64,000 nt of DNA from Candidatus Marinacidobacterales bacterium (GCA_965226495.1 OZ245365.1:2048001-2112000); one strand, 5' to 3'. Shown: positions 25,244 to 42,789, numbered from the stretch's first letter. Notes: generated by a model from the sequence alone, not told the origin. A program made the numbers and translations.

Positions 25244-26359
25244 ATGAAGTCGCTTTCACTGTTGCTTCTTATTAATGCGCTCACCGTCGGACCAAGCTTC
25301 GCAACCCAGCCTAGGATCAAGGTCATCGCCGATCAGGACAGCGCGGGGCCGGAGGGAACGAACTATCTCTCCCTGTTGATGCTCCTCCTGGCCCCCGAAA
25401 TCGATCTGCCGGGAATCACCACGGTGAGTGGCGACCAGTGGGTTAAGCAGGCGACGGTTTTTGCGCGCCACGCCGTTGAGCTTACTGGGCGGTCCGACGT
25501 GCCGGTGGTTCAGGGCGCCGAGATGCCGTTGCTCAATAGTGGAGGCGAGCAGGAGCGTCGCGAACGCCTGTTCGGGTCTTATGCAACATGGCATGGGGTG
25601 TTCAATCCCGATGCTCCTTCTCCCGATCGCATTTGGGAACCACCTGGTGGCTGGCCTGAGATGCCAGCTCGGTCAGGGCATGCGGTCGACTTCATCATCG
25701 AGACGATCCGCAAGAATCCAGGCGAGGTCGTGCTCTACTGCGCGGGACCTCTGACCAACGTCGCGCTCGCCGTTCGCTTGGACCCCGGCATCGTGCAACT
25801 CACCCGGTCCATCTACATCATGGGGGGAAGCAGCGGCGGAGGCCCGGAGCTCAATTGGTGGTGGGATCCCGAAGCGGCGGCCATCGTTTTGCGAGAGCCT
25901 TGGAAGGAAATCGTGGTGACGCCGTTCGAGACGGGAGGCCAAGCATGGTCCAGCCCAGACCTTATGCGGCCGATTGTCGCTTCCGGAGGTCGACTTGCCA
26001 GTCACGTGAGCTCGACGTACCTAGATTACAAGCCTCAGGATTCCAATACCGTGTGGGGGATGATGTGGGATGAAGTCACGGTCGCCTCTTTGCTCGACCC
26101 GACGGTGATTGGTAAGTGGGAGGAATTGTATCTCGACGTGGTGATCGACCATGGACCCACCTACGGTGAAACTCGCGTCTGGCGGAAGCCGCCAGCGGTC
26201 CTGAGTTTTTTCTTGGCCTACAGTGGGCCCGATCCGATGGACTCTGAGAGTTGGACAGAACATCATCGGTTACCCTACGGCCGCCGTCCTGCGCAGGTTC
26301 AGATGGAAGTCGATCTGGAGAAATTCAATTCGCTTTTCATAGAGGTCTTGTCACGATAG
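25244..26359 (+). CDS. Nucleoside hydrolase family protein with signal peptide (non-canonical Asp motif)
   Basis: DQDSAGPEGTN, AGPLTNVA, NWWWDPEAA, MWDE; start ATG 25244 after GGGAGG. Confidence 0.85.
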   Translation: MKSLSLLLLINALTVGPSFATQPRIKVIADQDSAGPEGTNYLSLLMLLLAPEIDLPGITTVSGDQWVKQATVFARHAVELTGRSDVPVVQGAEMPLLNSGGEQERRERLFGSYATWHGVFNPDAPSPDRIWEPPGGWPEMPARSGHAVDFIIETIRKNPGEVVLYCAGPLTNVALAVRLDPGIVQLTRSIYIMGGSSGGGPELNWWWDPEAAAIVLREPWKEIVVTPFETGGQAWSSPDLMRPIVASGGRLASHVSSTYLDYKPQDSNTVWGMMWDEVTVASLLDPTVIGKWEELYLDVVIDHGPTYGETRVWRKPPAVLSFFLAYSGPDPMDSESWTEHHRLPYGRRPAQVQMEVDLEKFNSLFIEVLSR

Positions 26360-26380
26360 CTCTCTGCGAGGGGTTCGATC

Positions 26381-27400
26381 ATGAAGCCAAGTGTGGTGTT
26401 GATTGGTTTGTTGCTGGCAGCCGGCTGCGCTCGAGATCCCGGAGGCTCCGGCCGATGGGAGCTCTCAGAGTCGGCAGCCGGCGAGGTGGACGAGACCCTG
26501 GCGCGACAGATTTTTCTCGCGCTCGATGCAGCAGAGCAGGCAGGTACCGATCCGTCGATTTCTCACTACGATGTGCGTGCAGCGACGGTAGTGGAGGCCG
26601 AAGGGAGAGAGCACGTCGTGGTCGGGAGCAACACCGAGTACCAGGTTCCAGAGGCCATACATGGAGAGACTTCTCTTCTTAACCACGTGACGAGCCTGCT
26701 CGGGAAAGAGGCGACCCGGAGCGTTCGCTTCCTCGCTTTCTACTCCGATGGCAGGTGTGGGAGCGGCTCGAGCTGCGGTGACTGTCGAGATTACCAAATC
26801 GCGGTAACCGACTACCAGAACCTCTTGATCGCCTGTGGGCAGAGCTCAGATCGCACCGTACACATCAAGAAGTTCGCGGATGCGGTGGTTCCCGAAGAGA
26901 GTTTTCCAGCAGTCTCTGCCGACGGGATCCCTCTGAGCGAGGCGGTTTTAGAGCAGCTGGTGGGGGCGGCCATCGAAGCTCGCCAGGGTGGGATTACTCT
27001 CTTTACTTCTGGGGAACATCATGCCGGTGCCGCCGGAGTCTCGTCCAAGGGCAAGTTATACCGGGCGGCCGGTGCGGACGACGCGGCGTTTCATTACCGT
27101 TACCCGATTGGCGGGCTGCTTCAACAGGCGGCGGCGGAAAGCGACTACTTCATCGAAGCGATCGTCGTGGTAGGTGAGCCGGGTGAGTGGCCCCGCATCA
27201 GCTACCGCGACCGCCAGTACGGCTATGAGTCGAGCAGTTTCAATCTTCGGGAGGGCCTCGAGCCGATCCGCTTGATCCTGACCGACGGGGAGGGGAACTA
27301 CCGCATGACGACTTTCGAAGAGGCTTTGCCAGGGGCATTCAGCACCAGCGCCTTCATGCCCGATGCGGTGGGGGAGTTTTTGGAGAGCCACACTCGGTGA
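26381..27400 (+). CDS. Two-domain cytidine deaminase-like lipoprotein
   Basis: GSNTE, IHGE, SCGDCR Zn motif; second CDA-like domain lacking Zn ligands; lipobox LAAGC. Confidence 0.75.
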   Translation: MKPSVVLIGLLLAAGCARDPGGSGRWELSESAAGEVDETLARQIFLALDAAEQAGTDPSISHYDVRAATVVEAEGREHVVVGSNTEYQVPEAIHGETSLLNHVTSLLGKEATRSVRFLAFYSDGRCGSGSSCGDCRDYQIAVTDYQNLLIACGQSSDRTVHIKKFADAVVPEESFPAVSADGIPLSEAVLEQLVGAAIEARQGGITLFTSGEHHAGAAGVSSKGKLYRAAGADDAAFHYRYPIGGLLQQAAAESDYFIEAIVVVGEPGEWPRISYRDRQYGYESSSFNLREGLEPIRLILTDGEGNYRMTTFEEALPGAFSTSAFMPDAVGEFLESHTR

Positions 27401-27689: not shown

Positions 27690-28832
27690 ATGACACACGA
27701 GTTCCAACTGAAATCGATTTCAGATGATGAGCTACTCCGTCGGTTGTCGGAACTCACGCAACAGTCCCGACGCGTCGAGTCCGAGTTGGTCGCTCACATC
27801 GGCGAAGTGGACGAACGTCGACTGTATGCGCGCGAAGCTTTCTCTTCGATGTTTTCCTATTGCACCGAAAAGTTGCACTTGTCGGAGCACGAGGCTTACC
27901 TGCGCATCGCAGTGGGGCGCGCGTCTCGTACGCACCCCATGCTTCTCGAGATGCTCGGTGATGGGCAACTTCACTTGAGCGGCATCGCCAAGATCGCACC
28001 GCACCTCACCGAGGCCAATCGAGAGACGCTTTTGGCTCGTGCGGCGCACAAGTCCAAGCGGAAGATTGAGGAGCTGGTGGCCGAGATTTCACCCAAGCCT
28101 GATGTTCAGGCGACGATACGCAAACTGCCCGAGCGTCCCGAGAAAACAGAACGGACCCCAGCCCCCCAACTCGGTCCGGAACGAGTTGCTATGCCTTCCC
28201 CGGCTCCCGCTCCGGCCAAGCTCGCGGTGGTGGAGCCTCTTGCACCCGCGCGCTATAAAGTGCAGTTCACCGCCAGCTCCGAGCTTCACGATAAGCTGGC
28301 GCGACTCCGGGTGCTCATGCGCTCCTCGGTACCCGACGGTGATCTGGCTGCGATCATAGAAGAGGCCGTGACCGAGAAGCTCGAGCGGCTAGAGTCGAAG
28401 CGGCTTGCCAAGACCAAGTCCGCAAGAAAGAGTCTTGAAGAAACCGACACGTCGCCCTCATCGCGCTACATCCCGGCCGCGGTGAAACGCGCCGTGCGGG
28501 AGCGGGACGGGAACCAATGCACGTTTGTGGACGCAAACGGTAGACGCTGTAGGGAGCGCCACGGCCTCGAGTTCCACCACCACCAGCCCTTTGGCCGTGG
28601 CGGCGACCACAGCCCGGAGAACCTGCGGATGATGTGCCCCGCGCACAACCGGTATCTGGCCGAGCGCGACTACGGAAGAGAGGTGATGAGGCGATACCGG
28701 CGCTCAGGCGACCATGCACGCGAGCCCGCGCCTGTTTACTTCCTCGGCAACCGGCTCTCGAACGCGACGAGTGGGGCCCGTCGCGACAGGAGCGGCGGCA
28801 GCACGACGTGGTCTAGGGCGAAATACGGTTAG
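27690..28832 (+). CDS. HNH endonuclease with DUF222-like N-terminal region
   Basis: RYIPAAVKRAVRERDGNQC...C...EFHH...GGDHSPENLRMMCPAHN. Confidence 0.85.
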   Translation: MTHEFQLKSISDDELLRRLSELTQQSRRVESELVAHIGEVDERRLYAREAFSSMFSYCTEKLHLSEHEAYLRIAVGRASRTHPMLLEMLGDGQLHLSGIAKIAPHLTEANRETLLARAAHKSKRKIEELVAEISPKPDVQATIRKLPERPEKTERTPAPQLGPERVAMPSPAPAPAKLAVVEPLAPARYKVQFTASSELHDKLARLRVLMRSSVPDGDLAAIIEEAVTEKLERLESKRLAKTKSARKSLEETDTSPSSRYIPAAVKRAVRERDGNQCTFVDANGRRCRERHGLEFHHHQPFGRGGDHSPENLRMMCPAHNRYLAERDYGREVMRRYRRSGDHAREPAPVYFLGNRLSNATSGARRDRSGGSTTWSRAKYG

Positions 28833-29767
28833 CCCTTGTCCCTCTTCTTCCACTCCTTGTTGAAGCGGGTTCGCTTGAGGAAAGACTTCTGGGTGCCGAC
28901 ACCCATCGTGGAGAGACCGGCGTAGAGATTGGCGCGGGCCAAGGCGTCCCGTTCCGGCATGCCTTCGGCGAGGAAGACCGCGAAGCTTCCAATGAACGCA
29001 TCGCCGGCCCCGGTAGTGTCTTTGGTTGTTACCTTGTAAGACGGGATGAGCTCCATGCCCTCCGAGCCCGCGAGCAAAGCTCCTTTTTCGCCGAGGGTGA
29101 TGATCACTCGACGAATCCCCTGTGCGAGAAGGTACTCGGCGCATGCCTTCGCTTGATCAACGGTCGTAACCGGCTTCCCGGTGATGGCGGCAGCCTCGGT
29201 CTCGTTGGGAACGAAGTAGTCGACGTTGGCCAACTGCTTCAGATCCGCGGGGAGCGCCGGGGCCGGATTCACGATACAGCGGATCTTGTTCTTCCGGGCG
29301 AATCGAACCGTGTGGTAGACGGTGTCGAGGGGAATCTCGAACTGCAAGATGATGATGTCGGCGCGTTTCAGTCGGGACGCTGCTTGATTGACTCCCTTGG
29401 CAGTCAGCTTGTCGTTGGCGCCCTTTACCACGATGATTCGATTCTGGCCGCTCTTCTCGACGAAGATGGGAGCCACACCACTCGAAACTCCCTTGACGGT
29501 TTGGACGTTGCGGGCCCCGATACCGAGGGACTTGAAGTTCTTGATGGTGGCCGGCCCGAAAAGGTCGTCTCCCACTCGTGCGACCATTTGCACCTTGGCG
29601 CCGCAGTACTTCGCCGCGACCGCCTGGTTCGCCCCTTTACCCCCGAAGCCGAGGTCGAAGGCTTCTCCGAAGACGGTCTCTCCCGGTTTGGGGAATTGAT
29701 CGGTGAAGCTGGTGAGGTCGACATTGGCACTTCCTACTACTGCGATTCGCGCTTGTCTTTTAGCCAT
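28829..29767 (-). CDS. rbsK: Ribokinase
   Basis: VVGSANVD, GGKGANQAVA, NETEA, DTTGAGDAF; start ATG 29767. Confidence 0.93.
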   Translation of the reverse strand: MAKRQARIAVVGSANVDLTSFTDQFPKPGETVFGEAFDLGFGGKGANQAVAAKYCGAKVQMVARVGDDLFGPATIKNFKSLGIGARNVQTVKGVSSGVAPIFVEKSGQNRIIVVKGANDKLTAKGVNQAASRLKRADIIILQFEIPLDTVYHTVRFARKNKIRCIVNPAPALPADLKQLANVDYFVPNETEAAAITGKPVTTVDQAKACAEYLLAQGIRRVIITLGEKGALLAGSEGMELIPSYKVTTKDTTGAGDAFIGSFAVFLAEGMPERDALARANLYAGLSTMGVGTQKSFLKRTRFNKEWKKRDKG

Positions 29768-29790: not shown

Positions 29791-30852
29791 CTAATCCGAT
29801 TGCGGCGAGGGCCGTGTCATCAAGTCCACGAAGAGCTTCTCGAAACGCTCGCGATCGATGTCGGTCTGGACTTTCCACGTTCGTCCGGCCCACCAAGGGC
29901 GATTCTTCTTGGTCCACCACACGGTCTTTCCGTAATCCGGTCCCCAGGCGAATTCGCAATCAACATAGAGCTCTTCCTTCTTGGTAATGACCTTGGGGTC
30001 GATGATGGAAGCCGCTGAGAGCTCGTCCCACATGTAGGAGAAGATACCTTCGTCTACGTTGGGTCCTAGATACGATTCCTTCATGTAGTTGGCGAGCGGG
30101 GTGTTCGCCGTGGCGATGCGCTCGATCAGCTCTTTCGTCATCTGGGTCTTGTGGCACACGTCAATGGGAGTAAGCTCCATGTCTTTCCACGGCGCGCGAA
30201 GGTGCATCGCGGCCGCCTCGGCATCCCACCAAAAATTGAACATGTGGTTCACGTGGGTTGCCCCACCCATCGTGTAGACGGCTTTGATCTTGCCGATGAT
30301 ATCCGGCGCGATCCGGATCGCCAAAGCGATATTGGTGAGCGGACCGGCGGTGTAGAGCACGAGCTCGCCCGGGTACTTCCGTGCCATCTCGATGAGCAGC
30401 TCCGCGGCGTGTTTATCCACCGGTTTGATGGTCGGGGGGCCGCCCGGGGCAGGAGGGATGGTCGTCTTCGGTGCGACCTCTGGGCCCCATGCACCGTGCC
30501 ATCCATCGCCTTCCTTCGGTCCCCAAAGGGCCTCGCGACGGTTCATCGCCCCCTCGCTATTAATAAGCGGATCTTCCGAGCCGGCCGCCACCGGAACGTC
30601 GGGCTGGCCGCAAACTTCTACAATCTTGAGCGTGTGATAGACGGCTTGATCGAGCCAGGCGTCACCACCAACGACGCCGATCCCCACGACCTCGATGTTA
30701 GGAGCCATGAGCAGCATGGCGATGGACACCACGTCGGTCCCGCCGGGACCGGAAGTGTCCTGGTCGATGAAGACCTTGATGCGCTCTTGTCCGGAAGAGG
30801 AGCTGGCGAGCAGGAAGACAGCAAGAGAAACGGCGACTGATACACGATGCAT
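29791..30852 (-). CDS. Nucleoside hydrolase family protein with signal peptide
   Basis: DQDTSGPGGTD, AGPLTNIA, NFWWDAEAA, MWDE. Confidence 0.88.
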   Translation of the reverse strand: MHRVSVAVSLAVFLLASSSSGQERIKVFIDQDTSGPGGTDVVSIAMLLMAPNIEVVGIGVVGGDAWLDQAVYHTLKIVEVCGQPDVPVAAGSEDPLINSEGAMNRREALWGPKEGDGWHGAWGPEVAPKTTIPPAPGGPPTIKPVDKHAAELLIEMARKYPGELVLYTAGPLTNIALAIRIAPDIIGKIKAVYTMGGATHVNHMFNFWWDAEAAAMHLRAPWKDMELTPIDVCHKTQMTKELIERIATANTPLANYMKESYLGPNVDEGIFSYMWDELSAASIIDPKVITKKEELYVDCEFAWGPDYGKTVWWTKKNRPWWAGRTWKVQTDIDRERFEKLFVDLMTRPSPQSD

Positions 30853-30871: not shown

Positions 30872-31957
30872 CTATGGTTTCCGCGGTGGTGCGGATAGGC
30901 GCTCTATGAACGTAGCCACGAACCGGTCACCGTCCACGACGGTCGGCACGTCGGCGTTCGGCTCCACCTTGGGGAAATTCGTAACCTCGTAATGGTCTCC
31001 CACGTCCTCGATGCCTTCCAGGAGCAAGTAGCGGTTGGCGACCGTCTCCCCATAGGTCAGGTCTCCTTTGGTTTCCACATCGATGAGCATGGATTTCATC
31101 TCAGTGGCGTAGGTCTTGTCGAAGGCCATGCCTACTGCCAGTGGATCGTGAAGATCGGCGCCCTCGAAGCCAAGCCTTTCCGAGAAACCGATGTAGAAGT
31201 CGTTGATGTCGGCTACGAACTTGCCAATCGCCGAGCCGGAGTTGGCGAGAGCAGGGAGGTGCCGGCGGTACAACTTGGTCTGTGATGTGGCTCCGAGACC
31301 TACCATGGTGATAGGGATACCGGAGTTGAAGACAATCTTCGCGGCCTCGGGATCATTGTAGATGTTGGCTTCGGCCGCCGGGCTCGCGTTGCCCCCGACG
31401 GTCGAGCCTCCCATCAGTATGATCTCGGGAACCTTCTCCCGCAGGGTGGGATCCTGCAGCAGTGCGAGCGCGATGTTGGTCAGCGGGCCCACCGGGACCA
31501 AGGTGATAACCCCGGGATTCGCGTTCACGATATCGATGATCACTTCCACGGCGTGGCGGGGGTCCAGCTTCTTGGTAGGAGCGGGGAGCTCGACGTCTCC
31601 CAAGCCGTTGGCCCCGTGAATCGATTCCGCGGTGATGAGCTTCCGCTGTAGAGGATACTTGGCGCCCTTCGCCACGATGATGTCGGGCCGCTCCGCCAAC
31701 TCGACGAGCTTGAGGGCGTTCACCGCGCCCTTGTCCACGATCACGTTTCCCGACACGACGGTGATGGCTTCGATCTGAAGCTCCGGTGACTGCGTTGCCA
31801 GCAAGACCGCCATGGCATCGTCGATACCGGGATCGATATCTAGGATGATGCGCCGTGGGTTCTGGGCGGTGGGGTTCTGCGCCGCGATGACCGCCTGGTT
31901 GTCGGCGACGATTCCGGCGGCGAGTAGCGCGGAGAAAAGGACTGGTAGTCGTTGCAT
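30872..31957 (-). CDS. Nucleoside hydrolase (canonical IU-NH type) with signal peptide
   Basis: DIDPGIDDA, IHGANGLG, AEANIYNDPEAA, LHDP. Confidence 0.93.
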   Translation of the reverse strand: MQRLPVLFSALLAAGIVADNQAVIAAQNPTAQNPRRIILDIDPGIDDAMAVLLATQSPELQIEAITVVSGNVIVDKGAVNALKLVELAERPDIIVAKGAKYPLQRKLITAESIHGANGLGDVELPAPTKKLDPRHAVEVIIDIVNANPGVITLVPVGPLTNIALALLQDPTLREKVPEIILMGGSTVGGNASPAAEANIYNDPEAAKIVFNSGIPITMVGLGATSQTKLYRRHLPALANSGSAIGKFVADINDFYIGFSERLGFEGADLHDPLAVGMAFDKTYATEMKSMLIDVETKGDLTYGETVANRYLLLEGIEDVGDHYEVTNFPKVEPNADVPTVVDGDRFVATFIERLSAPPRKP

Positions 31958-31972: not shown

Positions 31973-32950
31973 TCAGAAAGCGTTGGCGATGGCGGCGATG
32001 GCTCCCGCGTAGAAAATGAACATCAGAAGCAGATAGAACTTAGCCTTACTGTTCGCTCCGGCGAACTCCTTCCACACGAAGATTCCCCAGACGGCGGCAA
32101 CCATGGGCGCACTCTGGCCGATGGCGTAGGAGATTGCGAAGCCAGCGGTACGACCAGCGATCAAATTGAAGGCGGTGCCGATGCACCAGATGAAGCCGCC
32201 GACGAGGCCCAGAACGTGCCAGCTCGGCGCGCCCTGCACGTAGCCCGACAAAGAGACCGGCTCTCCCACCAGTGGTTTCTCCATGAAGTAGATGTTGAAG
32301 ATGAAGGTCGAGACTAGGGCGGCCAACGTGAAGAAGACCACGCTCGTGTAGGGGGTCAACTGACCGGCGCCGGACGCCATGGAGGCCGCGGTGAAGGGCG
32401 ACCAGCCTCCCATGAGGAGACCGCTCACGATGCAGATCCAGATTCCCTTCTTCGTGACCTTGAGCTTTCCACCTCCCAGCTCTTTGTAGGCGAGCGCATC
32501 GGCGATGATGGCAACGAGCGCGAGTACAACACCGACGGCGAGCAACCGGACATCGCCCTTCGGCTCCACCAAGTAGGTCACGATGGTTCCCACGACCAGC
32601 GCCGTGCCAATAGCCACCGGAAAGGCGACGGCCAGGCCGGCGATGGCAATGGCGGCGACCAGCAAGATGTTCGCGAGATTGAATACCGTCCCCCCGATCA
32701 TCGCGAGGCCTAGTCGCGAGCCGGTGGCTTGCATCAGGTTCGGCATGAAGGCTTCCTCACCGCCGCCCCAGCTGCCGAGCGTGAAGGCGAGAAGTAACGC
32801 CATCACGAAGATGCCGATGGCGTAGTCCCAGTAGAAGAGCTCGAAGCGGACGTCTTTGGTGAGTTTATAAGTGTTGGCCCAGGAGCCCCAGCAGATCATG
32901 CAGATGATCATTAAAAGGAGGGCGAGCCCGTAAGATTCGGGTATGAACAT
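31973..32950 (-). CDS. DMT-superfamily transporter (GRP/ureide permease-like), probable ribose or nucleobase uptake
   Basis: MICWGSWANT, FELFYWDY, ISYAIGQ, WGIFVWKEF; ~10 TM; heads the NH-NH-rbsK run. Confidence 0.8.
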   Translation of the reverse strand: MFIPESYGLALLLMIICMICWGSWANTYKLTKDVRFELFYWDYAIGIFVMALLLAFTLGSWGGGEEAFMPNLMQATGSRLGLAMIGGTVFNLANILLVAAIAIAGLAVAFPVAIGTALVVGTIVTYLVEPKGDVRLLAVGVVLALVAIIADALAYKELGGGKLKVTKKGIWICIVSGLLMGGWSPFTAASMASGAGQLTPYTSVVFFTLAALVSTFIFNIYFMEKPLVGEPVSLSGYVQGAPSWHVLGLVGGFIWCIGTAFNLIAGRTAGFAISYAIGQSAPMVAAVWGIFVWKEFAGANSKAKFYLLLMFIFYAGAIAAIANAF

Positions 32951-34299: not shown

Positions 34300-37254
34300 A
34301 TGACCGAAAACAGAAATTGCTTCAAGGTTTTCATGACCGTTCTCATTTTCGTCTTTGGAACGACGGCTGGCTTCGCGCAGACCCTCGACCGAGGTGAGCT
34401 GAGTGGGACGGTCATGGACGAGACGGGCGCCGCCCTTCCAGGCGCGACGGTCACTGTGACCCACTTGGGAAGCGGATTGACCCGCGTTGTTGTCAGCGAT
34501 AGTTCGGGTCGCTATCGAGCTCCGTTGCTGCCCGTGGGACCTTACCGGATCCAAGCCGAGCTTGCCGGCTTCGCCACACTGACCCGAGAAGGTGTCGTTG
34601 TGACGGTGGGATCGGCGCCGATCATCGACCTGACATTGCCTCTGGCAAGCGTGACGGAAGCGATCACTGTGACCGCCGACACTCCGGTCGTGCAAACGTC
34701 GCGAGCGGTCACCAGCACGACCCTCAACCAGGAGGCCATTTCCACGCTGCCTATCAACGGCCGGGACTTCCGTAACTTCGCTCTGCTCTCGCCGAGCGTG
34801 CAACAAAACGAAGCCCTCCGTGCCACGCTTCGCTTCGGCGGGCAGTCGGGCGACTATTCGCTGGTTGCGGTCGACGGTGCCGACCAAACCAATGCCTTCT
34901 TCGCGGAGTACACCGGCTCCCTGGAGACTAAGAACTTCGCCATCTCGCAAGAGGCCATCCAGGAGTTCCAGGTCCTGACCAACGGGTTCAACGCCGAGTT
35001 CGGCCGGTCCACCGGAGGGGTGATGAATGTGGTCACCAAGTCGGGGACAAATCAGACGCGCGCTTCGGCCTTTGCCTTCTTTCGAGACGGCGGCCTCAAG
35101 GCCGACGACCCGTTCGGGAATCCGGCTGGCGAGTTTAGCCAGAAACAGTTTGGGGGGAGCATCGGCGGTCCCATTGCCAAGGACAAGGCCTTCTTTTTCC
35201 TCGCGGCCGATCTGCAAAGACAAGATCAGACGAGCTTTACTCAATTCCGGCGGAACGTGGACGGAATCGCCGTTCCCGAATACGGGATCGCCAACCTGGC
35301 GGATCTGGAAGGGCCTTTCGTCGGAAGTCAGGATCTATCCACGGTCTTTGGAAAAGTCGATTTCGACGTCGCCGCCAACCATCGCCTCACGGTGCGTATG
35401 AATTACAGCAAGAACGAGACCACCAACTTCACGGCGCGGGGGACAGGAGTCGTAGCGGCCTCGGAGAGCAACTTCGAAGATTTCAGCAATACGGCCCTTT
35501 CGTTCGTGACCAGCTTGACCAGCGTCATCGGGACGAACGCGTTCAACGAGTTCAAGTTCCAGTACGTATTCGAGGATCGGCCACGCGAAGCGAAATCCGA
35601 CCTTCCGCAGGTTTCAATATTCGACACTTGCTCCGGGGGTTGCTTCGGACGCGAGTTCTTCCTCCCCATCAAGGGCGACAACGTCAAGATCCAATTCCAG
35701 GATAGTTTCAGCTATCTCTTCGGAAGCCACGACGTGAAGTTCGGCGTCGACTGGAACTCGAACCAGATCACCAACAACTCCTTCATCGGCTGGTCGCGGG
35801 GCCAATGGGACTTCTTCAGTTTGGAGGATTTTCAACGCCGGGCGCCGGGTGGATTCATTCAGCGGCAGTTCTTCGCCCCCTTCGATGAAGAGACAACCGA
35901 GACGAATAACTATTGGACTCACGAGCTTGGCCTTTTCATTCAGGACAAGTGGCAGCCGAAATCGAACCTGACGGTCAACTACGGTCTCCGCTACGAGGCT
36001 CAGTACAATGGTGATCCCAAGTTCCCTATTTCCGGACCAGACGGTACGATGGGCATGGTTCGGCAGGCACCGGGTACGGACCTGATTCCGGTTCCTCAGA
36101 CGATTGCCAACGACACCAACAATTTTGCTCCCCGGCTAGGTGTCTCGTGGGATCCCACGAACGATGGCCGCACCGTGGTGCGTGCTGCCTGGGGACTCTA
36201 CTTCGGCCGGACGGCGAGCATCTTCATGCCGACCGGAGGCGCCGGGTTCCGTGACACGACTTCCTTTCTTTTTCCGCCACCGGCAGGTTTGACCTTCCCC
36301 GACACTCTTCCGAGTCAGATACCGCCGGCCGCCGGCGTTCCTTCTATCAACTTTGTTGCCAACAACTTCAACAACCCACGCACCATGAACCTCAACGTCG
36401 GTATCGAGCGGGAGGTTGCTGACAGCATGTCGATCGGGTTTGACTACATCTTCTCCGACACCAAGAGCTCTCGCATCGGCGGGTTCAATAGTCAGTTCGA
36501 TCAAAACACTTTCGCCCCAACCGGGACGGACGAGTTCGGTCGCAACGTGGGGATCGGTGTCTTCACCCGAGGACGGCCCGATCCGAACTTCTTCCAGGCC
36601 GATATGCTGTCCAGCCTCGGACGCGGCCGCTACAACGCCGTCACCGTGACCTTCAAGAAGGGCTTCACCGAGCGCGGCCAGTTCTTTGCGCACTACACCT
36701 GGTCGAAGGATCAGTCGAATGCCGATGCAGAGCGGGATATCGGGATCAACATGGGGGTCGATAACCCGTTCGACGTGGAGTCGGCGTTCGGTCTCGATGA
36801 GCGGGACATGCCACATCGCTTCGTATTTCAGGGAACGGTGGATGTCGGGGCGGGCTTTTTGGTGAGCGGACTCGGCACTTTCCGCAGCGGTCGTGCCCTC
36901 GCCGCCTTCAACGACGTGGACGTCAACGGAGACGGCATCGGCAATCCTCCGTTCGACCGTCCGGTCGATGGCGGGGGCATCGTGGCGCGCTTTCCGGAGA
37001 GTCAGCCTAATTTCTATAACGTCGACATGCGCGTACAGTGGAGCGCCAACCTGGGTGGAGGAGGCGAGCTGGATCTCATCTTCGAGGTCTTCAACTTGTT
37101 CAACTTCAGCAACTACATCGCCACTCTCAATCATTTCACGGCACCGGCCTATGGTGCATGCAGCGCCGATCCGAACAGGGCTCTTTGCGACGCTTTTCTT
37201 GGCACGCCGAGAGAAGCTCAAATCGGCTTGAGGTGGAGATTCGGCGGAAATTAA
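34300..37254 (+). CDS. TonB-dependent receptor, Oar/Acidobacteria type with N-terminal carboxypeptidase-regulatory-like domain
   Basis: GTVMDETGAALPGATV, LPINGRDF, EFGRSTGGVMNVVTKSGTN, NNFAPRLG, C-terminal QIGLRWRF. Confidence 0.95.
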   Translation: MTENRNCFKVFMTVLIFVFGTTAGFAQTLDRGELSGTVMDETGAALPGATVTVTHLGSGLTRVVVSDSSGRYRAPLLPVGPYRIQAELAGFATLTREGVVVTVGSAPIIDLTLPLASVTEAITVTADTPVVQTSRAVTSTTLNQEAISTLPINGRDFRNFALLSPSVQQNEALRATLRFGGQSGDYSLVAVDGADQTNAFFAEYTGSLETKNFAISQEAIQEFQVLTNGFNAEFGRSTGGVMNVVTKSGTNQTRASAFAFFRDGGLKADDPFGNPAGEFSQKQFGGSIGGPIAKDKAFFFLAADLQRQDQTSFTQFRRNVDGIAVPEYGIANLADLEGPFVGSQDLSTVFGKVDFDVAANHRLTVRMNYSKNETTNFTARGTGVVAASESNFEDFSNTALSFVTSLTSVIGTNAFNEFKFQYVFEDRPREAKSDLPQVSIFDTCSGGCFGREFFLPIKGDNVKIQFQDSFSYLFGSHDVKFGVDWNSNQITNNSFIGWSRGQWDFFSLEDFQRRAPGGFIQRQFFAPFDEETTETNNYWTHELGLFIQDKWQPKSNLTVNYGLRYEAQYNGDPKFPISGPDGTMGMVRQAPGTDLIPVPQTIANDTNNFAPRLGVSWDPTNDGRTVVRAAWGLYFGRTASIFMPTGGAGFRDTTSFLFPPPAGLTFPDTLPSQIPPAAGVPSINFVANNFNNPRTMNLNVGIEREVADSMSIGFDYIFSDTKSSRIGGFNSQFDQNTFAPTGTDEFGRNVGIGVFTRGRPDPNFFQADMLSSLGRGRYNAVTVTFKKGFTERGQFFAHYTWSKDQSNADAERDIGINMGVDNPFDVESAFGLDERDMPHRFVFQGTVDVGAGFLVSGLGTFRSGRALAAFNDVDVNGDGIGNPPFDRPVDGGGIVARFPESQPNFYNVDMRVQWSANLGGGGELDLIFEVFNLFNFSNYIATLNHFTAPAYGACSADPNRALCDAFLGTPREAQIGLRWRFGGN

Positions 37255-37278
37255 TCCTCCGTAAGAACTGCTAGAATG

Positions 37279-37311
37279 ATGCCGGGGCCCGTTGGGACCC
37301 CGGCATTTTTT
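37279..37311 (+). terminator. Intrinsic terminator after TonB receptor
   Basis: atgccgggg...ccccggcat hairpin followed by T6. Confidence 0.7.
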
Positions 37312-38742
37312 ATGACTCCGGCGCTGGTTGTTCTTGCATGGCTGGTTGCCCCACCCACGATCGTCCAGGAGGAGACGTTCGAAGAGGTGATTACGCGCGC
37401 GGTTGTATCGGAGCGTGAGGGCCGGCTTGAAGATGCCACTGTCGCGTTCCAAGAAGCAGCACGACTTCGGCGCGACCATCCCCGCGTTTACTACAGCCTC
37501 GCATGGACCCTGTTCCAAAGGGGCTTGCTCAACGAGGCCCTCGAAGCCGTGGACTCTGCCCTGCGGCTCGACTCCGACGAAGCACTTTTTCACCTTTTCC
37601 AGGGTAAGGTTTTCCACGAGCTTGGAAACCTGCGAGAAGCCGAGAGAGCTTACCTAGAAACCATTCGCTTGGATCCCGAATCGAGCGATGCGTACCTGGC
37701 GCTCGCCGATGTCTATGCGACCACCGAGCAGTTCGAGAAATCGGTCGACGCGCTCCGCGCCTATCTGAGGATTCATCCGCAGGATACGCGGGCGTTGTAT
37801 TTCTTGGCCGGCGCCTTGAGCGATCAAAAACGCAGGGAAGAGGCGCTCGAGGTTTTCAATCAGGTCATCGAGCGGGAGCCCGATCATTCGCGCGCCTGGT
37901 TCCACAAGGCGCGTCTCGAGGCTCAAGATCCAAAAAATGCGGAGCTGGCGCTCGGTAGTTACGAGAGGTCTCTTCAGTTGGACTCGGCTTACGCGTTTAC
38001 TTACTACGAGTATGGGGCGCTCCTAGGAAAGCTAGGTCGTCTCGAAGAGGGAATAGCGGCCCTCGAGAAAGCGGTCGAGTTGGCACCCGAGTTATCTCAG
38101 GCTACGTACGCGCTCGGGAATCTCCTGAGTCGGGCGGGTCGTACCGACGAGGCCAAAGCCTATCTGGAGCGTTTCAAGTCACAAAGAGATGAGCAAGCCC
38201 GAACCGACGAACGGGCCAGGCGGGCGGTAGCGGCCCTGGGTACGGGACGCCAGCTACTTGAGGGGAATCGTTTGGAGGAGGCGGCAGAGGCCTTTCTCGA
38301 GCTCACCGAACTCGATCCGAAGAGCCATCAAGGCTACTCTTATCTTGCCAAGACCTATCGGTCCTTGGGGCAGGTTGAGGTGGCGATCGCGTACATCCGG
38401 CGCGCCATCGAGCTCGCTCCCGGAGCCTCAGAATATCCGTACCTGCTTTCGCTTTTTCTGAAAGATCGGCGAGATTTCGCAGGCTCGGTGGAAGCGGCGC
38501 GGCGCGCGGTAGCCTTGGGTCCAGGGAACTCAATGCTTCATAACGCCTTGGGGGTTATCTTGAGCGAGGCCGGCGATGCGCGAGGGGCCGTTGCGGCGTT
38601 CGAGGCCGCCGCCGAGCTCGATCCGGAGAACCCAACCTACAGTCTTAACCTCGCCGCTGCCTACGAAAGGATCGGGTCTGTGGAAAAAAGTGCCGTGGCT
38701 ATGGAGCGCTACCGGCAGCAGGTCGCAGCGCCGCCACCGTAG
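37312..38742 (+). CDS. Exported TPR protein
   Basis: ~12 TPR units; signal-like N-terminus; start after terminator preferred. Confidence 0.88.
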   Translation: MTPALVVLAWLVAPPTIVQEETFEEVITRAVVSEREGRLEDATVAFQEAARLRRDHPRVYYSLAWTLFQRGLLNEALEAVDSALRLDSDEALFHLFQGKVFHELGNLREAERAYLETIRLDPESSDAYLALADVYATTEQFEKSVDALRAYLRIHPQDTRALYFLAGALSDQKRREEALEVFNQVIEREPDHSRAWFHKARLEAQDPKNAELALGSYERSLQLDSAYAFTYYEYGALLGKLGRLEEGIAALEKAVELAPELSQATYALGNLLSRAGRTDEAKAYLERFKSQRDEQARTDERARRAVAALGTGRQLLEGNRLEEAAEAFLELTELDPKSHQGYSYLAKTYRSLGQVEVAIAYIRRAIELAPGASEYPYLLSLFLKDRRDFAGSVEAARRAVALGPGNSMLHNALGVILSEAGDARGAVAAFEAAAELDPENPTYSLNLAAAYERIGSVEKSAVAMERYRQQVAAPPP

Positions 38743-38745: not shown

Positions 38746-39558
38746 ATGACCGATTGGGGAAACGCGCTGGCGCGTTCATATGCGCAAGCCAAACGAGGCG
38801 AAGGCGGGTTCACCTGCGCACAGATCCGCGACCTCACGAAGATCGACTTAGGCGACGAGTTTTCGCTGGTGATTGCGGTAGATTCCGACGGGGGTATCGG
38901 CTCTCGTGCACACGATCTGGTCAAAGTTCGCGAGTACGTCTTGGGACGATTCGCGATGAGAGTTCCTCTCATGGAGGTTCTCTCGTGTGGCGCGCTTCCC
39001 GTCGCCGCCTTCGACATGCTCACCGTGCCAATGGACGAGCTCGGTCGGGAAATTGTTCGCGGGGTGCGTGACGAGCTTGCGGAAGCCGGACTGGGTGCCG
39101 ACTTCCCATTGTCCGGAAGCACCGAAGATAACGTGCCCACCAATGCGACCGGAGTAGCAACGACGGTTCTAGGCGTTGTGCATCAGGACGATTTTCGTCC
39201 CGGAAGCTCTAGAGCCGGGGACAGAGTGCTGTGCGTAGGCCTTCCCAAGTCAGCGCCCGATGATGAGATTACTCTGGAAGACAAAGAGATTGTCCGGCTA
39301 TCGCATATCGCCAAATTATTGCGGATGGACGGTGTTCACGACGTTTTACCTGTGGGTTCGCGGGGAGTTTCGTACGAGGCGCGCGAGCTGGCGAGCTCGG
39401 CGGGCCTCGAGTTGATCGTGACTCGCGACACGAAGTTGGACGTAGACAAATCGGCAGGCCCTTCTACCTGCGTACTCTTATCCGTCTCCGCCGAGGAGAG
39501 CGTATCGGTAGCTCGAGGATTGAGCGTTCCCGTGACGGAGACTGGAACGCTCGCCTAG
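38746..39558 (+). CDS. PurM/AIR-synthase-related kinase, alpha-ribazole kinase (CblS)-like
   Basis: RDLT...LVIAVDSDGGIG...RVPLMEVL...GSTEDN...TTVLG...PVGSRG...KSAGPSTC, motif string recalled from CblS homologues. Confidence 0.7.
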   Translation: MTDWGNALARSYAQAKRGEGGFTCAQIRDLTKIDLGDEFSLVIAVDSDGGIGSRAHDLVKVREYVLGRFAMRVPLMEVLSCGALPVAAFDMLTVPMDELGREIVRGVRDELAEAGLGADFPLSGSTEDNVPTNATGVATTVLGVVHQDDFRPGSSRAGDRVLCVGLPKSAPDDEITLEDKEIVRLSHIAKLLRMDGVHDVLPVGSRGVSYEARELASSAGLELIVTRDTKLDVDKSAGPSTCVLLSVSAEESVSVARGLSVPVTETGTLA

Positions 39559-39579: not shown

Positions 39580-40017
39580 CTACCGCACCATCAACCACGT
39601 CCCGAAGAGAAGCGACGTCACTCCCAGAGTGCGTGCGATATCGAAGGGACGCACGTTGGTACCGAACAATCCGAAGTGGTCGACGAGCGCTCCCACCGTG
39701 AGCTGTGCGGCAACGAAAAGAGTGATCGTCGTTCCCACACCGAGCCGCGGGATCGCGTAGTTGATCGCGCTCAGTATGCCGACGCCTAGGGTGCCCGCGC
39801 CCAGCGCATACCAGGGTACCGTACGCCACTGAGCGATATTCCCGCCGCCCTGGCCGAGCAGCAGGATAGCGGCGAGGAGCGTCCCGCCGATGTGAATGAT
39901 GAGCACGCTTGCCATCAATCCCACGCGCTGTCCCATGAGACTGGCCAGCGTTGCCTGAAGCGCGGCCGCAACGCCTCCGGAGAACGCGACCAGGAGCTTG
40001 AACGCCATTCCCAACAT
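39580..40017 (-). CDS. YdcZ-like DMT family small transporter
   Basis: ~5 TM, PWYALGAG, AQL..GALVDHFGLFG. Confidence 0.85.
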   Translation of the reverse strand: MLGMAFKLLVAFSGGVAAALQATLASLMGQRVGLMASVLIIHIGGTLLAAILLLGQGGGNIAQWRTVPWYALGAGTLGVGILSAINYAIPRLGVGTTITLFVAAQLTVGALVDHFGLFGTNVRPFDIARTLGVTSLLFGTWLMVR

Positions 40018-40087
40018 CTGCATCACCCTCCACGTGTCATCGGCAGGTCGCGGTCCATACCGGATTGCCGTGGTATCCTCTGGAACC

Positions 40088-41089
40088 ATGGCGAGTATAA
40101 AAGAACGCATCTATGGTTGTCTGGTCGGTGTCGCCGCCGGGGACGCTATGGGGATGCCAACTTCCCTCATGAGTCGGGAGGCTATTAAGGAGACTTTCGG
40201 GGAGTACATCGAGGACTTCCTGCCGGCGCCCAAGGGACACGTCATTCATGATCGCATGGTGGCCGGACAAATCACCGACGATACGCAACACACGCTTCTG
40301 ATTGCCGACTCCATCATTCAAAAGGGACGAGTCGATCCGCACGATATCGCCGCTAGATTGATGAAGTGGGCGGAGGAGATGGGGGCCTTTGAGGGGTTGA
40401 TCGTGGGACCGAGCTCGTTGAGGGCGCTGCACCGACTCCGTCAGGGGGTACCCATCGAAGAGTCCGGCGTCACGGGAGATACCAATGGCGCTTCCATGAG
40501 GGTCTCGACGGTGGGGATCTATGGGGGTGGTGATCTCGGGAAAACGGTAGATGCCGTGGCGGCTGCCTGCATGCCGACCCACAACACGAACATCGCTATC
40601 GCGGGCGCGAGCGCAGTGGCTATGGTCATCGGTTGCGGCATCGCCGGCAGCGGGGACGTTGACGAGTTGATATCGCGAGCGCTCGAAGCGGTGGAGCTCG
40701 GTAGCAGCAAGGGGCGAGCCTGGTACGGGGCGTCGATCGTCAAACGTACCAAGCGGGCGCTCGAAATCGTCGAGGGTTCCACGGATCGCGATACGATCAT
40801 GAACGAGCTTTACGATGTCGTGGGCGCTGGCGTAGCCACGACCGAGACGGTACCGGTCTGCCTTGCCATGCTGAAGCTCGCCCAGGGAGAACCGGTGGAC
40901 GCCATCCGCCTGGCCACCAATTTGGGAGGGGATTGCGATACGACGGCCAGTATCGTGGGCGGCATGTGTGGCGCGATTGCCAGTATAAACGCCTTTCCGG
41001 TAGAGTGGATCGACAAACTGGAAGAGGTAAACGGCCTGCACCTCGAGGACTACGCCGATAAACTGACGCAGGTGGTTTCGAGCACTTAA
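40088..41089 (+). CDS. ADP-ribosylglycohydrolase family protein
   Basis: GDAMG, TDDT, NGASMR, PTH, GGDCDT metal motifs. Confidence 0.92.
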   Translation: MASIKERIYGCLVGVAAGDAMGMPTSLMSREAIKETFGEYIEDFLPAPKGHVIHDRMVAGQITDDTQHTLLIADSIIQKGRVDPHDIAARLMKWAEEMGAFEGLIVGPSSLRALHRLRQGVPIEESGVTGDTNGASMRVSTVGIYGGGDLGKTVDAVAAACMPTHNTNIAIAGASAVAMVIGCGIAGSGDVDELISRALEAVELGSSKGRAWYGASIVKRTKRALEIVEGSTDRDTIMNELYDVVGAGVATTETVPVCLAMLKLAQGEPVDAIRLATNLGGDCDTTASIVGGMCGAIASINAFPVEWIDKLEEVNGLHLEDYADKLTQVVSST

Positions 41090-41112
41090 TCCCCTTATCA
41101 CCCCATATCATT

Positions 41113-42789
41113 TTGACCCACGCGTTCTTCCCCACGTTCCTAGCTGCGCTCATTGCTCTTTTGGGTCCCGTACCTACAGAGGAGCGCTTCGAGCTCGCGT
41201 CGCCCCTCGACTTCACGCATCTCGCTGGAGCACCGGACAAGGACTACATCGTTGAGACGATGGGTTCGGGAGTTGCGCTCTTCGACTACGACGGCGACGC
41301 CGATCTAGACATCTACCTCATCAATGGCTCGACGCTCGACAGGGTGGCGACTGGCGAGCCGGGTGAGGCGAATCGGCTCTTCCGAAACGAGGGGGCCTGG
41401 TCGTTCACCGACGTCACCGAGCAGGCGGGAGTGGGGGATCGTGGATTCGGCCAAGGTGTCGCAGTAGCCGATATCGACAACGACGGAGATTCCGATCTCT
41501 ATCTGACCAACTACGGACCCAACGTTCTCTATAGCAACAACGGGGATGGTACGTTCTCCGCGAGCCCCGCGGGGGTCGAGGAAGAGCGGTGGAGCTCGGG
41601 AGCCGCTTTCGGTGATGTCGATAGCGACGGATTCGTCGATCTTTACGTCAGCAATTACCTCGACTTCGACCGTGAGCTGCTCGATCGCGCCATCCCGCGC
41701 CGGTTCTGTGAATGGAAGGGCCTGAAGGTACAGTGTGGGCCCAAGGGTTTCGGCTTCGTATCGGGAGTGCTCTATCACAACCGGGGCGATGGAACTTTCG
41801 AGGACTGGACGGAGCGATCGGGGGTCATGAACCGCGAGACCTACCAGCTGGGTGCCATCTTCTCCGACCTGGACTTGGATGGGGACCAGGACCTCTACGT
41901 CACGACCGACACCACCCTCAACCTGCTCTTCGAGAATCAAGGTGATGGGCGGTTTCGGGATCTATCGCTTCTGTCGGGAACCGCACTCTCCCAAAACGGC
42001 ATGGAACAAGCGGGGATGGGAATCGATGTCGGTGACGTGAACGCCGACGGCCGACCCGACTTGTTCGTTACGAACTTCTCGGACGATTACAACACCCTCT
42101 ACTTGAACCAAGAGGGCTTGACGTTCGTCGACTCCACGGATCTGGCGGGTCTCGGTTTGGCCAGCCTTCACTATCTCGGGTGGAGCACGAGGCTCGCGGA
42201 TTTGGATGCGGATGGAGACCTGGATATTTTCGTGGTGAATGGACATGTTTATCCGCAAGTAGATGGCTCGGATGTCGACGCAAGCTTCCGTCAACCGATG
42301 CAGGTGTTTCTCAATGACGGGCGCGGCAAGTTCGAAGACGCGACCGCAGGGCTCGGGTCGGTTCTCTCGGAGCCTCGTGCTTCGCGAGGCGCCGGGCTCG
42401 GAGATCTGGATGGAAACCACAGCCAGGACGTCGTGGTGAACGTCATGGATGGGTCTCCGGTATTGATTCGCAATCGAATTCCCGTCGCGGACCGCACTGT
42501 GGTCCTGAAGTTGGTCGGGCAGGAATCCAATCGCGGCGCCGTTGGGGCTCTGGTAATCGCGGAGATCGGGGACCGCACAACGGTCCGGGAGGTGCGTGGA
42601 GACCGTGGCTATCAGTCTCATAGCGATTCACGAATCTACATCGGTCTTGGAAACTCCCGGAGGATCGATGGGCTCACCATACGGTGGCCGAGCGGGAGGC
42701 GTGAGCTCCTAACCGAGCTCTCCCCTGGCTCTTATACCGTGCTAGAGGGCCAGGGCATCGTCTGGAAAAGCAAGAAGAAGAAAAACTAG
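41113..42789 (+). CDS. CRTAC1-family protein (FG-GAP repeats + ASPIC/UnbV)
   Basis: Repeated DxDxDGDxD motifs, C-terminal SNRGAVGA...IRWPSG. Confidence 0.9.
   Translation: MTHAFFPTFLAALIALLGPVPTEERFELASPLDFTHLAGAPDKDYIVETMGSGVALFDYDGDADLDIYLINGSTLDRVATGEPGEANRLFRNEGAWSFTDVTEQAGVGDRGFGQGVAVADIDNDGDSDLYLTNYGPNVLYSNNGDGTFSASPAGVEEERWSSGAAFGDVDSDGFVDLYVSNYLDFDRELLDRAIPRRFCEWKGLKVQCGPKGFGFVSGVLYHNRGDGTFEDWTERSGVMNRETYQLGAIFSDLDLDGDQDLYVTTDTTLNLLFENQGDGRFRDLSLLSGTALSQNGMEQAGMGIDVGDVNADGRPDLFVTNFSDDYNTLYLNQEGLTFVDSTDLAGLGLASLHYLGWSTRLADLDADGDLDIFVVNGHVYPQVDGSDVDASFRQPMQVFLNDGRGKFEDATAGLGSVLSEPRASRGAGLGDLDGNHSQDVVVNVMDGSPVLIRNRIPVADRTVVLKLVGQESNRGAVGALVIAEIGDRTTVREVRGDRGYQSHSDSRIYIGLGNSRRIDGLTIRWPSGRRELLTELSPGSYTVLEGQGIVWKSKKKKN

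Follow-up and report, generated by a model that had tools for sequence, protein, structure and literature searches.

The rus locus of Bacteroides thetaiotaomicron (BT2802-2809) encodes a regulator, two ribokinases, a SusC/SusD pair, a surface glycoside hydrolase, a periplasmic nucleoside hydrolase (NH) of weak, broad activity and a permease, and at least 70 rus-like configurations are found across the Bacteroidetes; the enzymes they encode include NHs, ADP-ribosylglycohydrolases and NAD hydrolases (10.1101/574913). In Pseudomonas aeruginosa the periplasmic purine NH Nuh leaves ribose and adenine to enter the cell separately (PMC5437708; PMC5522865), and the review PMC5437708 calls its outer-membrane route unidentified. 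Here we describe a related locus in a 64,000-nt stretch of DNA from a Candidatus Marinacidobacterales bacterium (the window; G000:C1:2048001-2112000 of a single-contig 6.34-Mb genome, 94.8% complete). It combines genes for four exported NHs, an exported protein of the cytidine deaminase (CDA) fold and a TonB-dependent-type outer-membrane receptor. We read it as a receptor-linked ribonucleoside scavenging locus of two divergent units, which we consider fairly probable.

The locus resembles rus in combining a TonB-dependent-type outer-membrane transporter, a periplasmic IU-type NH, a ribokinase and an inner-membrane permease (10.1101/574913). Unlike rus, its receptor is not of the SusC type, and in place of SusD it has genes for a TPR protein and a CRTAC1-like propeller after the receptor gene. 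It also has four NHs where one is described for rus, one ribokinase rather than two, an exported CDA-fold lipoprotein and a DMT permease. The surface glycoside hydrolase and the linked regulator of rus are both missing, and the host belongs to the phylum Acidobacteriota. Judged by its gene content, the locus would thus work like the rus locus, yet it is not a SusC/SusD member. With Nuh it would share periplasmic cleavage, separate uptake of ribose and base, and a ribokinase leading into the pentose phosphate pathway, whereas Nuh is a single enzyme under quorum-sensing control, with no receptor, deaminase or permease linked to its gene (PMC5437708; PMC5522865). As in SusC/SusD pairs, the gene immediately downstream of the receptor gene encodes an exported repeat protein that is all-helical, and the receptor gene has as neighbors exported hydrolases that act on a single class of substrate. 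Unlike SusD, the TPR protein lacks a lipobox, the best 25 of its 32 matched Pfam families include no SusD family, and its predicted partner is the CRTAC1-like propeller; a further difference from SusC/SusD is that the NupC-linked receptor clade described below lacks TPR and CRTAC1-like (CRTAC) genes.

The first-pass annotation of this DNA considered that no such system had been described. Its logic is, however, already present in the rus loci (10.1101/574913) and in Nuh (PMC5437708). Our literature search gave no acidobacterial or TonB-linked NH system beyond the rus preprint, whose supplementary variant list, outside the search, may hold cases from outside the Bacteroidetes. New here are the receptor that is not SusC/D, an exported CDA-fold family without a Pfam model, an export leader on every one of the genome's seven NHs, two nucleoside loci in one genome and a predicted complex of the TPR and CRTAC1-like proteins.

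Linkage of the receptor to nucleoside hydrolase genes

Window proteins were assigned to families with Pfam and NCBIfam profiles against curated cut-offs, and every member of the gene set named in the first-pass annotation (25244-42789) was recovered in this way (Table 1). The minus-strand operon runs NH-D, DMT permease, NH-C, NH-B and ribokinase, the successive intergenic distances being 76, 15, 19 and 23 bp. Among the plus-strand genes, 21 bp separate NH-A from the CDA-like gene, 21 bp the receptor gene from the TPR gene, 3 bp the TPR gene from the AIRS gene and 23 bp the ARH gene from the CRTAC gene. PF01156 has seven matches in the whole genome, and since four of the seven are packed into 9 kb of 6.34 Mb, the grouping of the NHs is far from chance.

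The receptor contains a CarboxypepD_reg domain (77.9 bits) and the barrel PF25183 OMP_b-brl_4 (259.6 bits), while PF00593 scored 19.7 bits, below its cut-off of 27. No SusC/RagA model was among its NCBIfam matches, and no signalling domain was matched with Pfam. A scan of one genome per species with the receptor gave 80 loci, in which we then looked for the window proteins by tblastn (E ≤ 1e-8, at least 50% query coverage). Nine of these (L001-L007, L009 and L018), labelled Vicinamibacteria, 'Marinacidobacterales' or Acidobacteriota, carry receptor orthologs with 49–70% sequence identity. At least one NH gene was found within 10 kb in eight of the nine; in the ninth, L007, the sequence starts inside the receptor gene. 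In contrast, none of the 71 loci with paralogous receptors (26–39% identity) has an NH, ribokinase, CDA-like or DMT match. A comparison of receptor neighborhoods had been proposed in the first-pass annotation as a check on the association, and its outcome (8/9 against 0/71) is in favor of it. The NH-linked receptors also form a single clade with support 100 in a FastTree phylogeny of 74 receptors.

Two of the orthologous loci, L002 and L003, keep the gene order of the window, and the former has its alkaline phosphatase gene directly against NH-A, with no ECF module between them. Gene order is rearranged in L004, L005 and L018, and the link between receptor and NH persists: L004 retains only the CDA-like gene and NH-C, L005 retains the ribokinase and NH-C, and the NHs of L018 have been relocated downstream of CRTAC. 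The core of all orthologous loci is NH ... receptor-TPR-CRTAC. Apparent frameshifts or stops were seen in the highly similar orthologs of L002 (NH-A and CDA-like) and L003 (NH-D), which come from metagenomes assembled from long reads; indel errors of the assembly, and not decay of the genes, are the probable cause.

Table 1. Genes and promoter of the putative nucleoside locus. Positions are those of the window; bit scores refer to the Pfam or NCBIfam profile named.
Feature	Position	Strand	Evidence
Alkaline phosphatase, lipoprotein-type leader	21103..22620	+	PF00245 286.8 bits
NH-A, exported IU-type nucleoside hydrolase, divergent subgroup	25244..26359	+	PF01156 179.4 bits
Exported two-domain CDA-fold protein, lipoprotein-type leader	26381..27400	+	Fold model, zinc motif
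HNH endonuclease gene, apparent insertion	27690..28832	+	PF01844 20.1 bits, below cut-off
Ribokinase, cytoplasmic, last gene of minus-strand operon	28829..29767	-	TIGR02152 337.2 bits
NH-B, exported nucleoside hydrolase, divergent subgroup	29791..30852	-	PF01156 193.4 bits
NH-C, exported nucleoside hydrolase, canonical motif	30872..31957	-	PF01156 302.3 bits
Inner-membrane DMT permease, ureide-permease / glucose-ribose porter type	31973..32950	-	PF07168 85.6 bits
NH-D, exported nucleoside hydrolase, first gene of minus-strand operon	33027..34103	-	PF01156 234.9 bits
Sigma-70-type promoter of receptor operon	34176..34205	+	TTGACA-18-TACAAT
TonB-dependent-type outer-membrane receptor, N-terminal carboxypeptidase-regulatory-like domain	34300..37254	+	CarboxypepD_reg, OMP_b-brl_4
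Exported TPR protein	37276..38742	+	TPR families (Pfam)
Short AIRS/PurM-type protein, cytoplasmic	38746..39558	+	PF00586 26.3 bits (cut-off 24)
YdcZ-type DMT membrane protein, true start probably near 40023	39580..40110	-	PF04657 93.5 bits
ADP-ribosylglycohydrolase (ARH)-family protein, probable start 40088, no leader	39998..41089	+	PF03747 214.2 bits
Exported CRTAC1-like FG-GAP beta-propeller with UnbV_ASPIC	41113..42789	+	Pfam domains

Further pairings of receptor and nucleoside genes, and clusters without a receptor

The same genome holds a second locus of this kind (L092; G000:C1:1994001-2013000), which lies 35-54 kb before the window begins. The genes run DeoC, RpiB, a GWxTD protein, the receptor, a frameshifted CRTAC, TPR, CRTAC and a TonB_C protein, followed on the other strand by Cdd (PF00383), a PNP/UDP phosphorylase, NupC and a pyrimidine-nucleoside phosphorylase (PyNP), and then by Upp. 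The receptor of L092 is ≈40% identical to that of the window and lies in five pieces over three frames, with in-frame stops. NupC of this locus is the sole NupC-type transporter of the genome, and no Tsx channel or NupG was found in this 94.8% complete sequence.

Outside this genome, NupC, PNP and Cdd genes, with or without PyNP, lie directly upstream of the receptor gene and on the same strand in L014, L022 and L041. No TPR or CRTAC match was found in these three loci, which rules out that a TPR-CRTAC pair always goes with nucleoside-linked receptors. L031 carries DeoC and RpiB, and L045 carries DeoC with TPR and CRTAC. L014, L022, L041 and L031 fall within one seven-member receptor clade (support 100) from other Acidobacteriota. 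By their gene neighborhoods, receptors of this type are thus associated with nucleoside breakdown in two or more clades and with two kinds of metabolic route, which inherited synteny alone would hardly explain.

The CDA-like gene is rare, being present in six of 401 sampled genomes of the phylum, the window's own included. It lies beside NH genes in four of the five other carriers, one of which (G011) is the genome of the L009 contig. It is accompanied by NH, CRTAC and TPR genes in G136, by DMT, ribokinase, three NHs, two CRTACs and TPR in G015, and by NH-A, ribokinase, a further NH and DMT in G131; in G316 it stands alone. No receptor was found in the 12-20 kb around the CDA-like gene of G136, G015, G131 and G316. 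A rule that the receptor always goes with a CDA/NH cluster is ruled out by L088, L089 and L090; in L088 and L089 the TPR and CRTAC genes are in the same strand run as the NH genes, with no receptor. The predicted periplasmic enzyme set thus occurs without a linked receptor, and TPR-CRTAC genes accompany the NH genes even so.

Export leaders

Leaders were judged by eye and by Kyte-Doolittle hydropathy, backed by conservation in orthologs. In the NHs, 26-36 residues precede the Pfam domain, which aligns from profile position 1-2 (the leader has 27 residues in NH-A and 36 in NH-C). These leaders combine one or two basic residues with a hydrophobic core and with small residues ahead of the fold. 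The best 10-residue Kyte-Doolittle mean was 1.97-2.96 for the NH leaders against 0.09 for the ribokinase and 0.71 for the HNH protein. The ribokinase, HNH and AIRS proteins together span 0.09-1.31, and the hydrophobic stretch of the ARH protein is part of its fold. The leaders of the CDA-like protein and the alkaline phosphatase terminate in Cys in a lipobox-like context, the phosphatase having a hydrophobic core and its Cys at about residue 20. Hydrophobic leaders were also seen on the receptor, the TPR protein and the CRTAC1-like protein.

The signal-peptide-like N-termini of the four NHs and the lipoprotein character of the deaminase-like protein had been noted in the first-pass annotation, and both agree with the hydrophobic leaders found here by hydropathy and conservation. 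The AIRS, YdcZ and ARH proteins, which the same annotation had listed in the locus, have no export leaders and belong to a variable insert, and so are no part of a periplasmic enzyme set. Leaders on the NHs and the CDA-like protein are kept in the orthologs of about ten loci (among L001-L006, L009, L018 and L088-L090). An internal control is given by the extra NH-C-like copies (39–40% identity) downstream of CRTAC in L005 and L006, which begin at the fold. All seven NH paralogs of the window's genome have an export leader, and none looks cytoplasmic. One of them (G000:C1:6087418-6088332 (+)) has a twin-arginine (Tat-type) leader, while the others look Sec-type.

Nucleoside hydrolases

All four NHs of the window scored far above the PF01156 (IU_nuc_hydro) cut-off of 34.2 bits, and none reached the NCBIfam equivalog cut-offs for RihA, RihB, RihC or UriH. 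NH-B has 312 homologs at E ≤ 1e-20, and its best solved structure is 6ba0 (E 1.6e-24); NH-C matches structure 5tsq (E 8.1e-61).

We compared the motifs in an alignment of the four window proteins. The roles of the D-x-D-x-x-x-D-D calcium/ribose motif and of the H-D pair are taken from the figure legend of the rus preprint (10.1101/574913), together with general knowledge of the family. Shared without change by all four proteins are the two leading Asp of the motif, the Thr within G-P-L-T-N, the block of N and D-x-E-A-A, and the Asp of the H-D pair. The last two positions of the calcium/ribose motif are D-D in NH-C and NH-D, T-D in NH-B and T-N in NH-A. The H-D pair is intact only in NH-C, being Y-D in NH-D and W-D in NH-A and NH-B. 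NH-C is thus canonical in both motifs, and it is also the NH most often retained beside the receptor in related loci. In NH-A, NH-B and NH-D the residues suggest that the chemistry is kept and that handling of the leaving group is changed, which may give differing base preferences. The altered active-site positions among these four co-located paralogs could be mapped to substrate preference.

The exported CDA-fold protein

The CDA-like protein has no Pfam match at E ≤ 0.1, including PF00383 and PF08211. TIGR01354 matched both halves of the protein below threshold (24.6 bits vs 113.65), and the second half weakly matches the CDA of Bacillus subtilis. The family is large, with 525 homologs at E ≤ 1e-3, and the best 120, those among the matches listed, are all at least 60% identical. 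Many of these homologs carry the JGI name 'cytidine deaminase', and precomputed Pfam domains are absent from all of them. Residues H94, E96, C132 and C135, which make up an (H/C)-x-E plus C-x-x-C zinc/catalytic motif, are invariant in 24 of 24 aligned sequences, and the Cys that closes the leader is present in 13 of the 24, counted by eye.

An AlphaFold2 model of the protein (pLDDT 80.4) was searched with Foldseek. It matched B. subtilis CDA (1ux1) with an E-value of 1.9e-8 and a TM score of 0.85, normalized by target length, and aligned over 247-293 columns with the two-domain Cdd structures of Vibrio cholerae (4eg2), E. coli (1ctt), Klebsiella pneumoniae (6k63) and Arabidopsis (6l08). The blasticidin S deaminases 1wn6, 2z3j and 3oj6 were matched as well, with cytidine deaminases ranking higher. 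The protein is thus an exported two-domain CDA-fold protein with the zinc/catalytic residues in the first domain. It shares with the two-domain Cdd enzymes the tandem CDA domains, of which the first has the zinc/catalytic residues and the second does not. Unlike them, it is predicted to be exported and, in many family members, lipidated, lacks a PF00383 or PF08211 match and forms its own tight family.

The name 'cytidine deaminase' given in the first-pass annotation therefore holds in part: the fold, the zinc motif and the lipobox-type leader are there, while the score stays below the curated cut-offs for cytidine deaminase proper. We file the protein as CDA-fold, a candidate deaminase. The locus in this way defines a large exported CDA-fold family without a Pfam model.

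TPR and CRTAC1-like proteins

The TPR gene comes directly after the receptor gene in every orthologous locus, and the CRTAC gene is kept with it in all of these loci as well as in L088, L089 and L092. UnbV_ASPIC has 11 matches in the genome. The profile of the CRTAC1-like protein matches the solved structure of human CRTAC1 (9etn, E 1.3e-29), and the two proteins share an FG-GAP calcium-binding beta-propeller with UnbV_ASPIC. Unlike vertebrate CRTAC1, the window protein is bacterial and lacks an EGF-type tail, and its gene lies with those of a TPR partner and a TonB-type receptor.

We modelled the TPR and CRTAC1-like proteins as a complex on alignments of 10 and 12 orthologs, with the receptor left out. 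The median score was 0.69 (runs 0.69, 0.62 and 0.77) against 0.00 for the best of three controls; the runs agreed in at least 71% of contacts, and the partners had a pLDDT of at least 88. The mark used for this score is reached by 58 of 80 solved complexes and by 2 of 110 mismatched pairs, rates that are rough with custom alignments. From this modelling, the two proteins probably form a complex, with a predicted interface at residues 274-300 of the TPR protein and 286-297 and 333-349 of the CRTAC1-like protein. In a literature search judged by titles and the opening lines of abstracts, we found no described function for bacterial CRTAC1 homologs. The locus gives them a first functional setting, with a TPR protein as the predicted partner.

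Regulation and expression

The promoter of the receptor operon agrees with the sigma-70 consensus in 11 of 12 positions, and its TTGACA is invariant in seven of seven aligned orthologous upstream regions. A shared operator in the 197-bp divergent region was considered and rejected; the seven-region alignment gave only the -35/-10 of the receptor and no clear palindrome. The ECF module between the alkaline phosphatase and NH-A genes was likewise rejected as a regulator: it lies next to NH-A in L003 and not in L002, and the receptor gave no match to a signalling domain.

At least half of the sampled words of window positions 30000-38000 were present in 18 DNA-type runs from seven studies. Two metatranscriptome runs from one study gave identical short contigs for the receptor (six), NH-A (one, 259 nt) and the YdcZ/ARH region (one). 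These contigs from RNA libraries are a weak hint of expression, since the libraries may contain DNA, and they give no ranking of the genes. Within 24000-43500 no such contig covered most of the NH operon, which is uninformative either way.

A model for nucleoside scavenging and its alternatives

Extracellular breakdown products of RNA and DNA are a major source of carbon, nitrogen and phosphorus in soils and marine sediments. In the model we favor, the locus consists of a plus-strand unit with the TonB-type receptor, the exported TPR protein and the exported CRTAC1-like propeller, and of a minus-strand operon with three exported NHs, the inner-membrane DMT and the cytoplasmic ribokinase. Upstream lie the exported NH-A and the CDA-fold lipoprotein, beside the lipoprotein alkaline phosphatase. 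The phosphatase would dephosphorylate nucleotides of decaying RNA, and the nucleosides could then pass the outer membrane via the receptor. In the periplasm, cytidine-type substrates would be deaminated and N-glycosidic bonds cleaved by NHs of differing specificity. Ribose may enter through the DMT and be phosphorylated by the ribokinase, and the free bases would be taken up by other permeases, such as the xanthine/uracil-family gene at 15183-16760. The AIRS, YdcZ and ARH genes may be a later, variable cytoplasmic add-on for some special riboside.

These steps do not all stand equally firm. The first-pass annotation had suggested import as in a polysaccharide utilization locus followed by periplasmic cleavage. 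Periplasmic nucleoside cleavage feeding the ribokinase appears well supported by the leaders and by synteny. Nucleoside import through the receptor is a reasonable inference from the gene neighborhoods, with the link to the receptor not universal, as L088-L090 show. The locus is thus a candidate for an energised outer-membrane nucleoside route, a step left open in the Nuh review (PMC5437708) and in the rus work (10.1101/574913).

Several observations weigh against this model. The receptor gene is divergent from the NH operon, so that the two are not one transcription unit, and its Plug domain (PF07715) is weak, with 15.4 bits against a cut-off of 23.9 at residues 142-241. Export was called with a heuristic, the hydropathy and inspection by eye described above. 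The altered motif positions in NH-A, NH-B and NH-D mean that their substrates may be non-standard nucleosides. Nucleosides (≈250-300 Da) are small enough for porins, and a TonB route is not required by their size. The orthologous loci come from related metagenome-assembled genomes, so their synteny is partly inherited. No nucleoside gene was found near the receptors of L027, L048 and L056, the other members of the clade that contains the NupC-linked receptors, and no receptor was found in the 12-20 kb fetched around the CDA/NH clusters, some with ribokinase or DMT, of L088, L089 and L090. We found no regulator gene linked to the locus, and a search of 14000-45000 against Rfam gave no match at E ≤ 1, that is, no riboswitch. 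Finally, mutants of rusC/D and rusNH still grew on nucleosides (10.1101/574913), and the closest known system is therefore no proof of nucleoside import.

In a more far-reaching version of our model, the receptor and the TPR and CRTAC1-like proteins would together be the acidobacterial equivalent of SusC/SusD. A heterodimer of the TPR protein and the calcium-binding propeller would capture nucleosides or small nucleic-acid fragments for a dedicated TonB-powered channel, with two flavors in the genome, one serving a hydrolase/deaminase route that is wholly periplasmic, all seven NHs being exported, and one serving the classical NupC/phosphorylase route. We offer this as a tentative proposal that is possible rather than probable. 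If true, it would give the first function for bacterial CRTAC1 homologs and the first TonB-dependent nucleoside uptake system.

A larger cargo is the alternative that fares best, although we consider it unlikely. Here, the receptor with the TPR and CRTAC1-like proteins would import oligonucleotides, nucleotides, NAD/ADP-ribose-type or other ribosylated molecules, to be dismantled in the periplasm. The usual substrates of TonB-type receptors are too scarce for porins or too big to pass them, and a calcium-binding propeller with a TPR partner resembles a capture device for a bigger molecule. The lipoprotein alkaline phosphatase next to NH-A in L002, and 2.6 kb away from it in the window, would also fit, as would the ARH gene inserted in the receptor unit, with ARH and NAD hydrolases occurring in rus variants (10.1101/574913). 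Yet the ARH protein is leaderless and its gene is not found in L001, L004, L005 and L006, the Pfam search of the locus gave neither an exported nuclease nor an exported phosphodiesterase, and the NupC-linked receptors of L014, L022 and L041 point to intact nucleosides in the periplasm.

It is quite improbable, in our view, that the two units are uncoupled, with the NH operon scavenging nucleosides that diffuse through porins, as proposed for Nuh, and the receptor, TPR and CRTAC1-like proteins importing an unrelated substrate. The divergent promoters of the units, the NH/CDA clusters without a receptor in L088-L090 and the TPR-CRTAC pairs and CRTAC paralogs elsewhere in the genome (among the 11 UnbV_ASPIC matches) speak for this, and Nuh offers a precedent that needs no dedicated receptor (PMC5437708). 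It does not sit well with the retention of NH in eight of nine orthologous loci despite rearrangement, against none of 71 paralogous ones, with the two more independent pairings of receptor and nucleoside genes (L092 and the L014/L022/L041/L031 clade), or with TPR and CRTAC in the NH strand run of L088 and L089 where a receptor is lacking. Detoxification, in which NH-A, NH-B, NH-D and the CDA-fold protein inactivate toxic nucleoside analogues (nucleoside antibiotics, as blasticidin S deaminase does) or process modified ribosides in the periplasm, is very improbable. The match of the fold model to blasticidin S deaminases, the changed leaving-group or motif positions in three of four NHs and the failure of any NH to reach an NCBIfam equivalog cut-off speak for it. 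Against it stand the ribokinase and permease genes in the same operon, a sign that the ribose is used, and the retention of NH-C, the canonical copy, more constantly than any other; in addition, alkaline phosphatase and base-metabolism genes lie nearby, and cytidine deaminases outrank blasticidin deaminases in the fold search.

Ribokinase, permease, variable insert and neighboring genes

The ribokinase exceeds the TIGR02152 equivalog cut-off of 299.65 bits, has its real start at 29767 and carries no leader. The DMT permease also matched PF06800 and TIGR00776 below their cut-offs and has a single copy in the genome according to tblastn; from these family matches it is a candidate ribose or base importer.

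The AIRS-YdcZ-ARH genes were found only in the window, L002, L003 and L007. Other NCBIfam matches of the AIRS protein were only weak ones to SelD and a methanogenesis marker, and the PDB gave no useful match. The 'CblS-like' label of this protein comes only from a language-model look-alike, the third Atlas cluster, 'Alpha-ribazole kinase' (score 0.97). CblS short AIRS-domain kinases are normally found with the transporter CblT. By these resemblances, the protein is possibly a riboside kinase.

The cluster is interrupted by an HNH gene (380 aa) that the first-pass annotation did not mention. It has ≈35 paralogs in the genome, up to 76% identical, of which ≈20 are at 58–76% and a second tier at 30–35% (e.g., C1:1127052-1128071 and C1:2325150-2326253 of G000). 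We rejected it as a member of the system, as it is multicopy in the genome and not present in the syntenic L002 and L003; it looks like a proliferating selfish insertion.

By its family and position, the alkaline phosphatase probably belongs to the system as an outlier, and it would convert nucleotides to nucleosides. Between it and NH-A lies the ECF module (22674-24997 (-)), a trio of an ECF sigma factor, a zf-HC2 anti-sigma factor and a DUF4097/LiaG-like protein. Further upstream, the xanthine/uracil-family permease gene is followed by that of a LOG/TIGR00730-type protein with a long N-terminal extension (16706-17800). A GWxTD protein is encoded near both receptor/nucleoside loci (17877-19724 (-) in the window and L092:2801-4156 (-)). 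On the other side, an Mnh/Mrp-type Na+/H+ antiporter operon (42887-50427 (+), MnhE 42887-43450) comes right after the CRTAC gene; it is adjacent in L002 and L003 too, and the AT skew is strongly negative at 46-50 kb.

Further genes for the processing of bases were seen in the window and in two of the clusters without a receptor. A TRZ/ATZ-family amidohydrolase akin to nucleoside/base deaminases (19742-21106) abuts the alkaline phosphatase, and L090 has a TRZ/ATZ-family amidohydrolase with a leader that is 38% identical to it. In L088 (7565-9622 (-); genome G136), an adenine deaminase (TIGR01178, 315.6 bits, below the cut-off of 472.5) with an N-terminal extension of ≈100 residues and a Tat-like motif adjoins the CDA-like/NH/CRTAC/TPR cluster. 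Its N-terminus and position suggest periplasmic adenine deamination in another acidobacterial lineage, and together with the L090 amidohydrolase it broadens the theme of periplasmic base and nucleoside processing.

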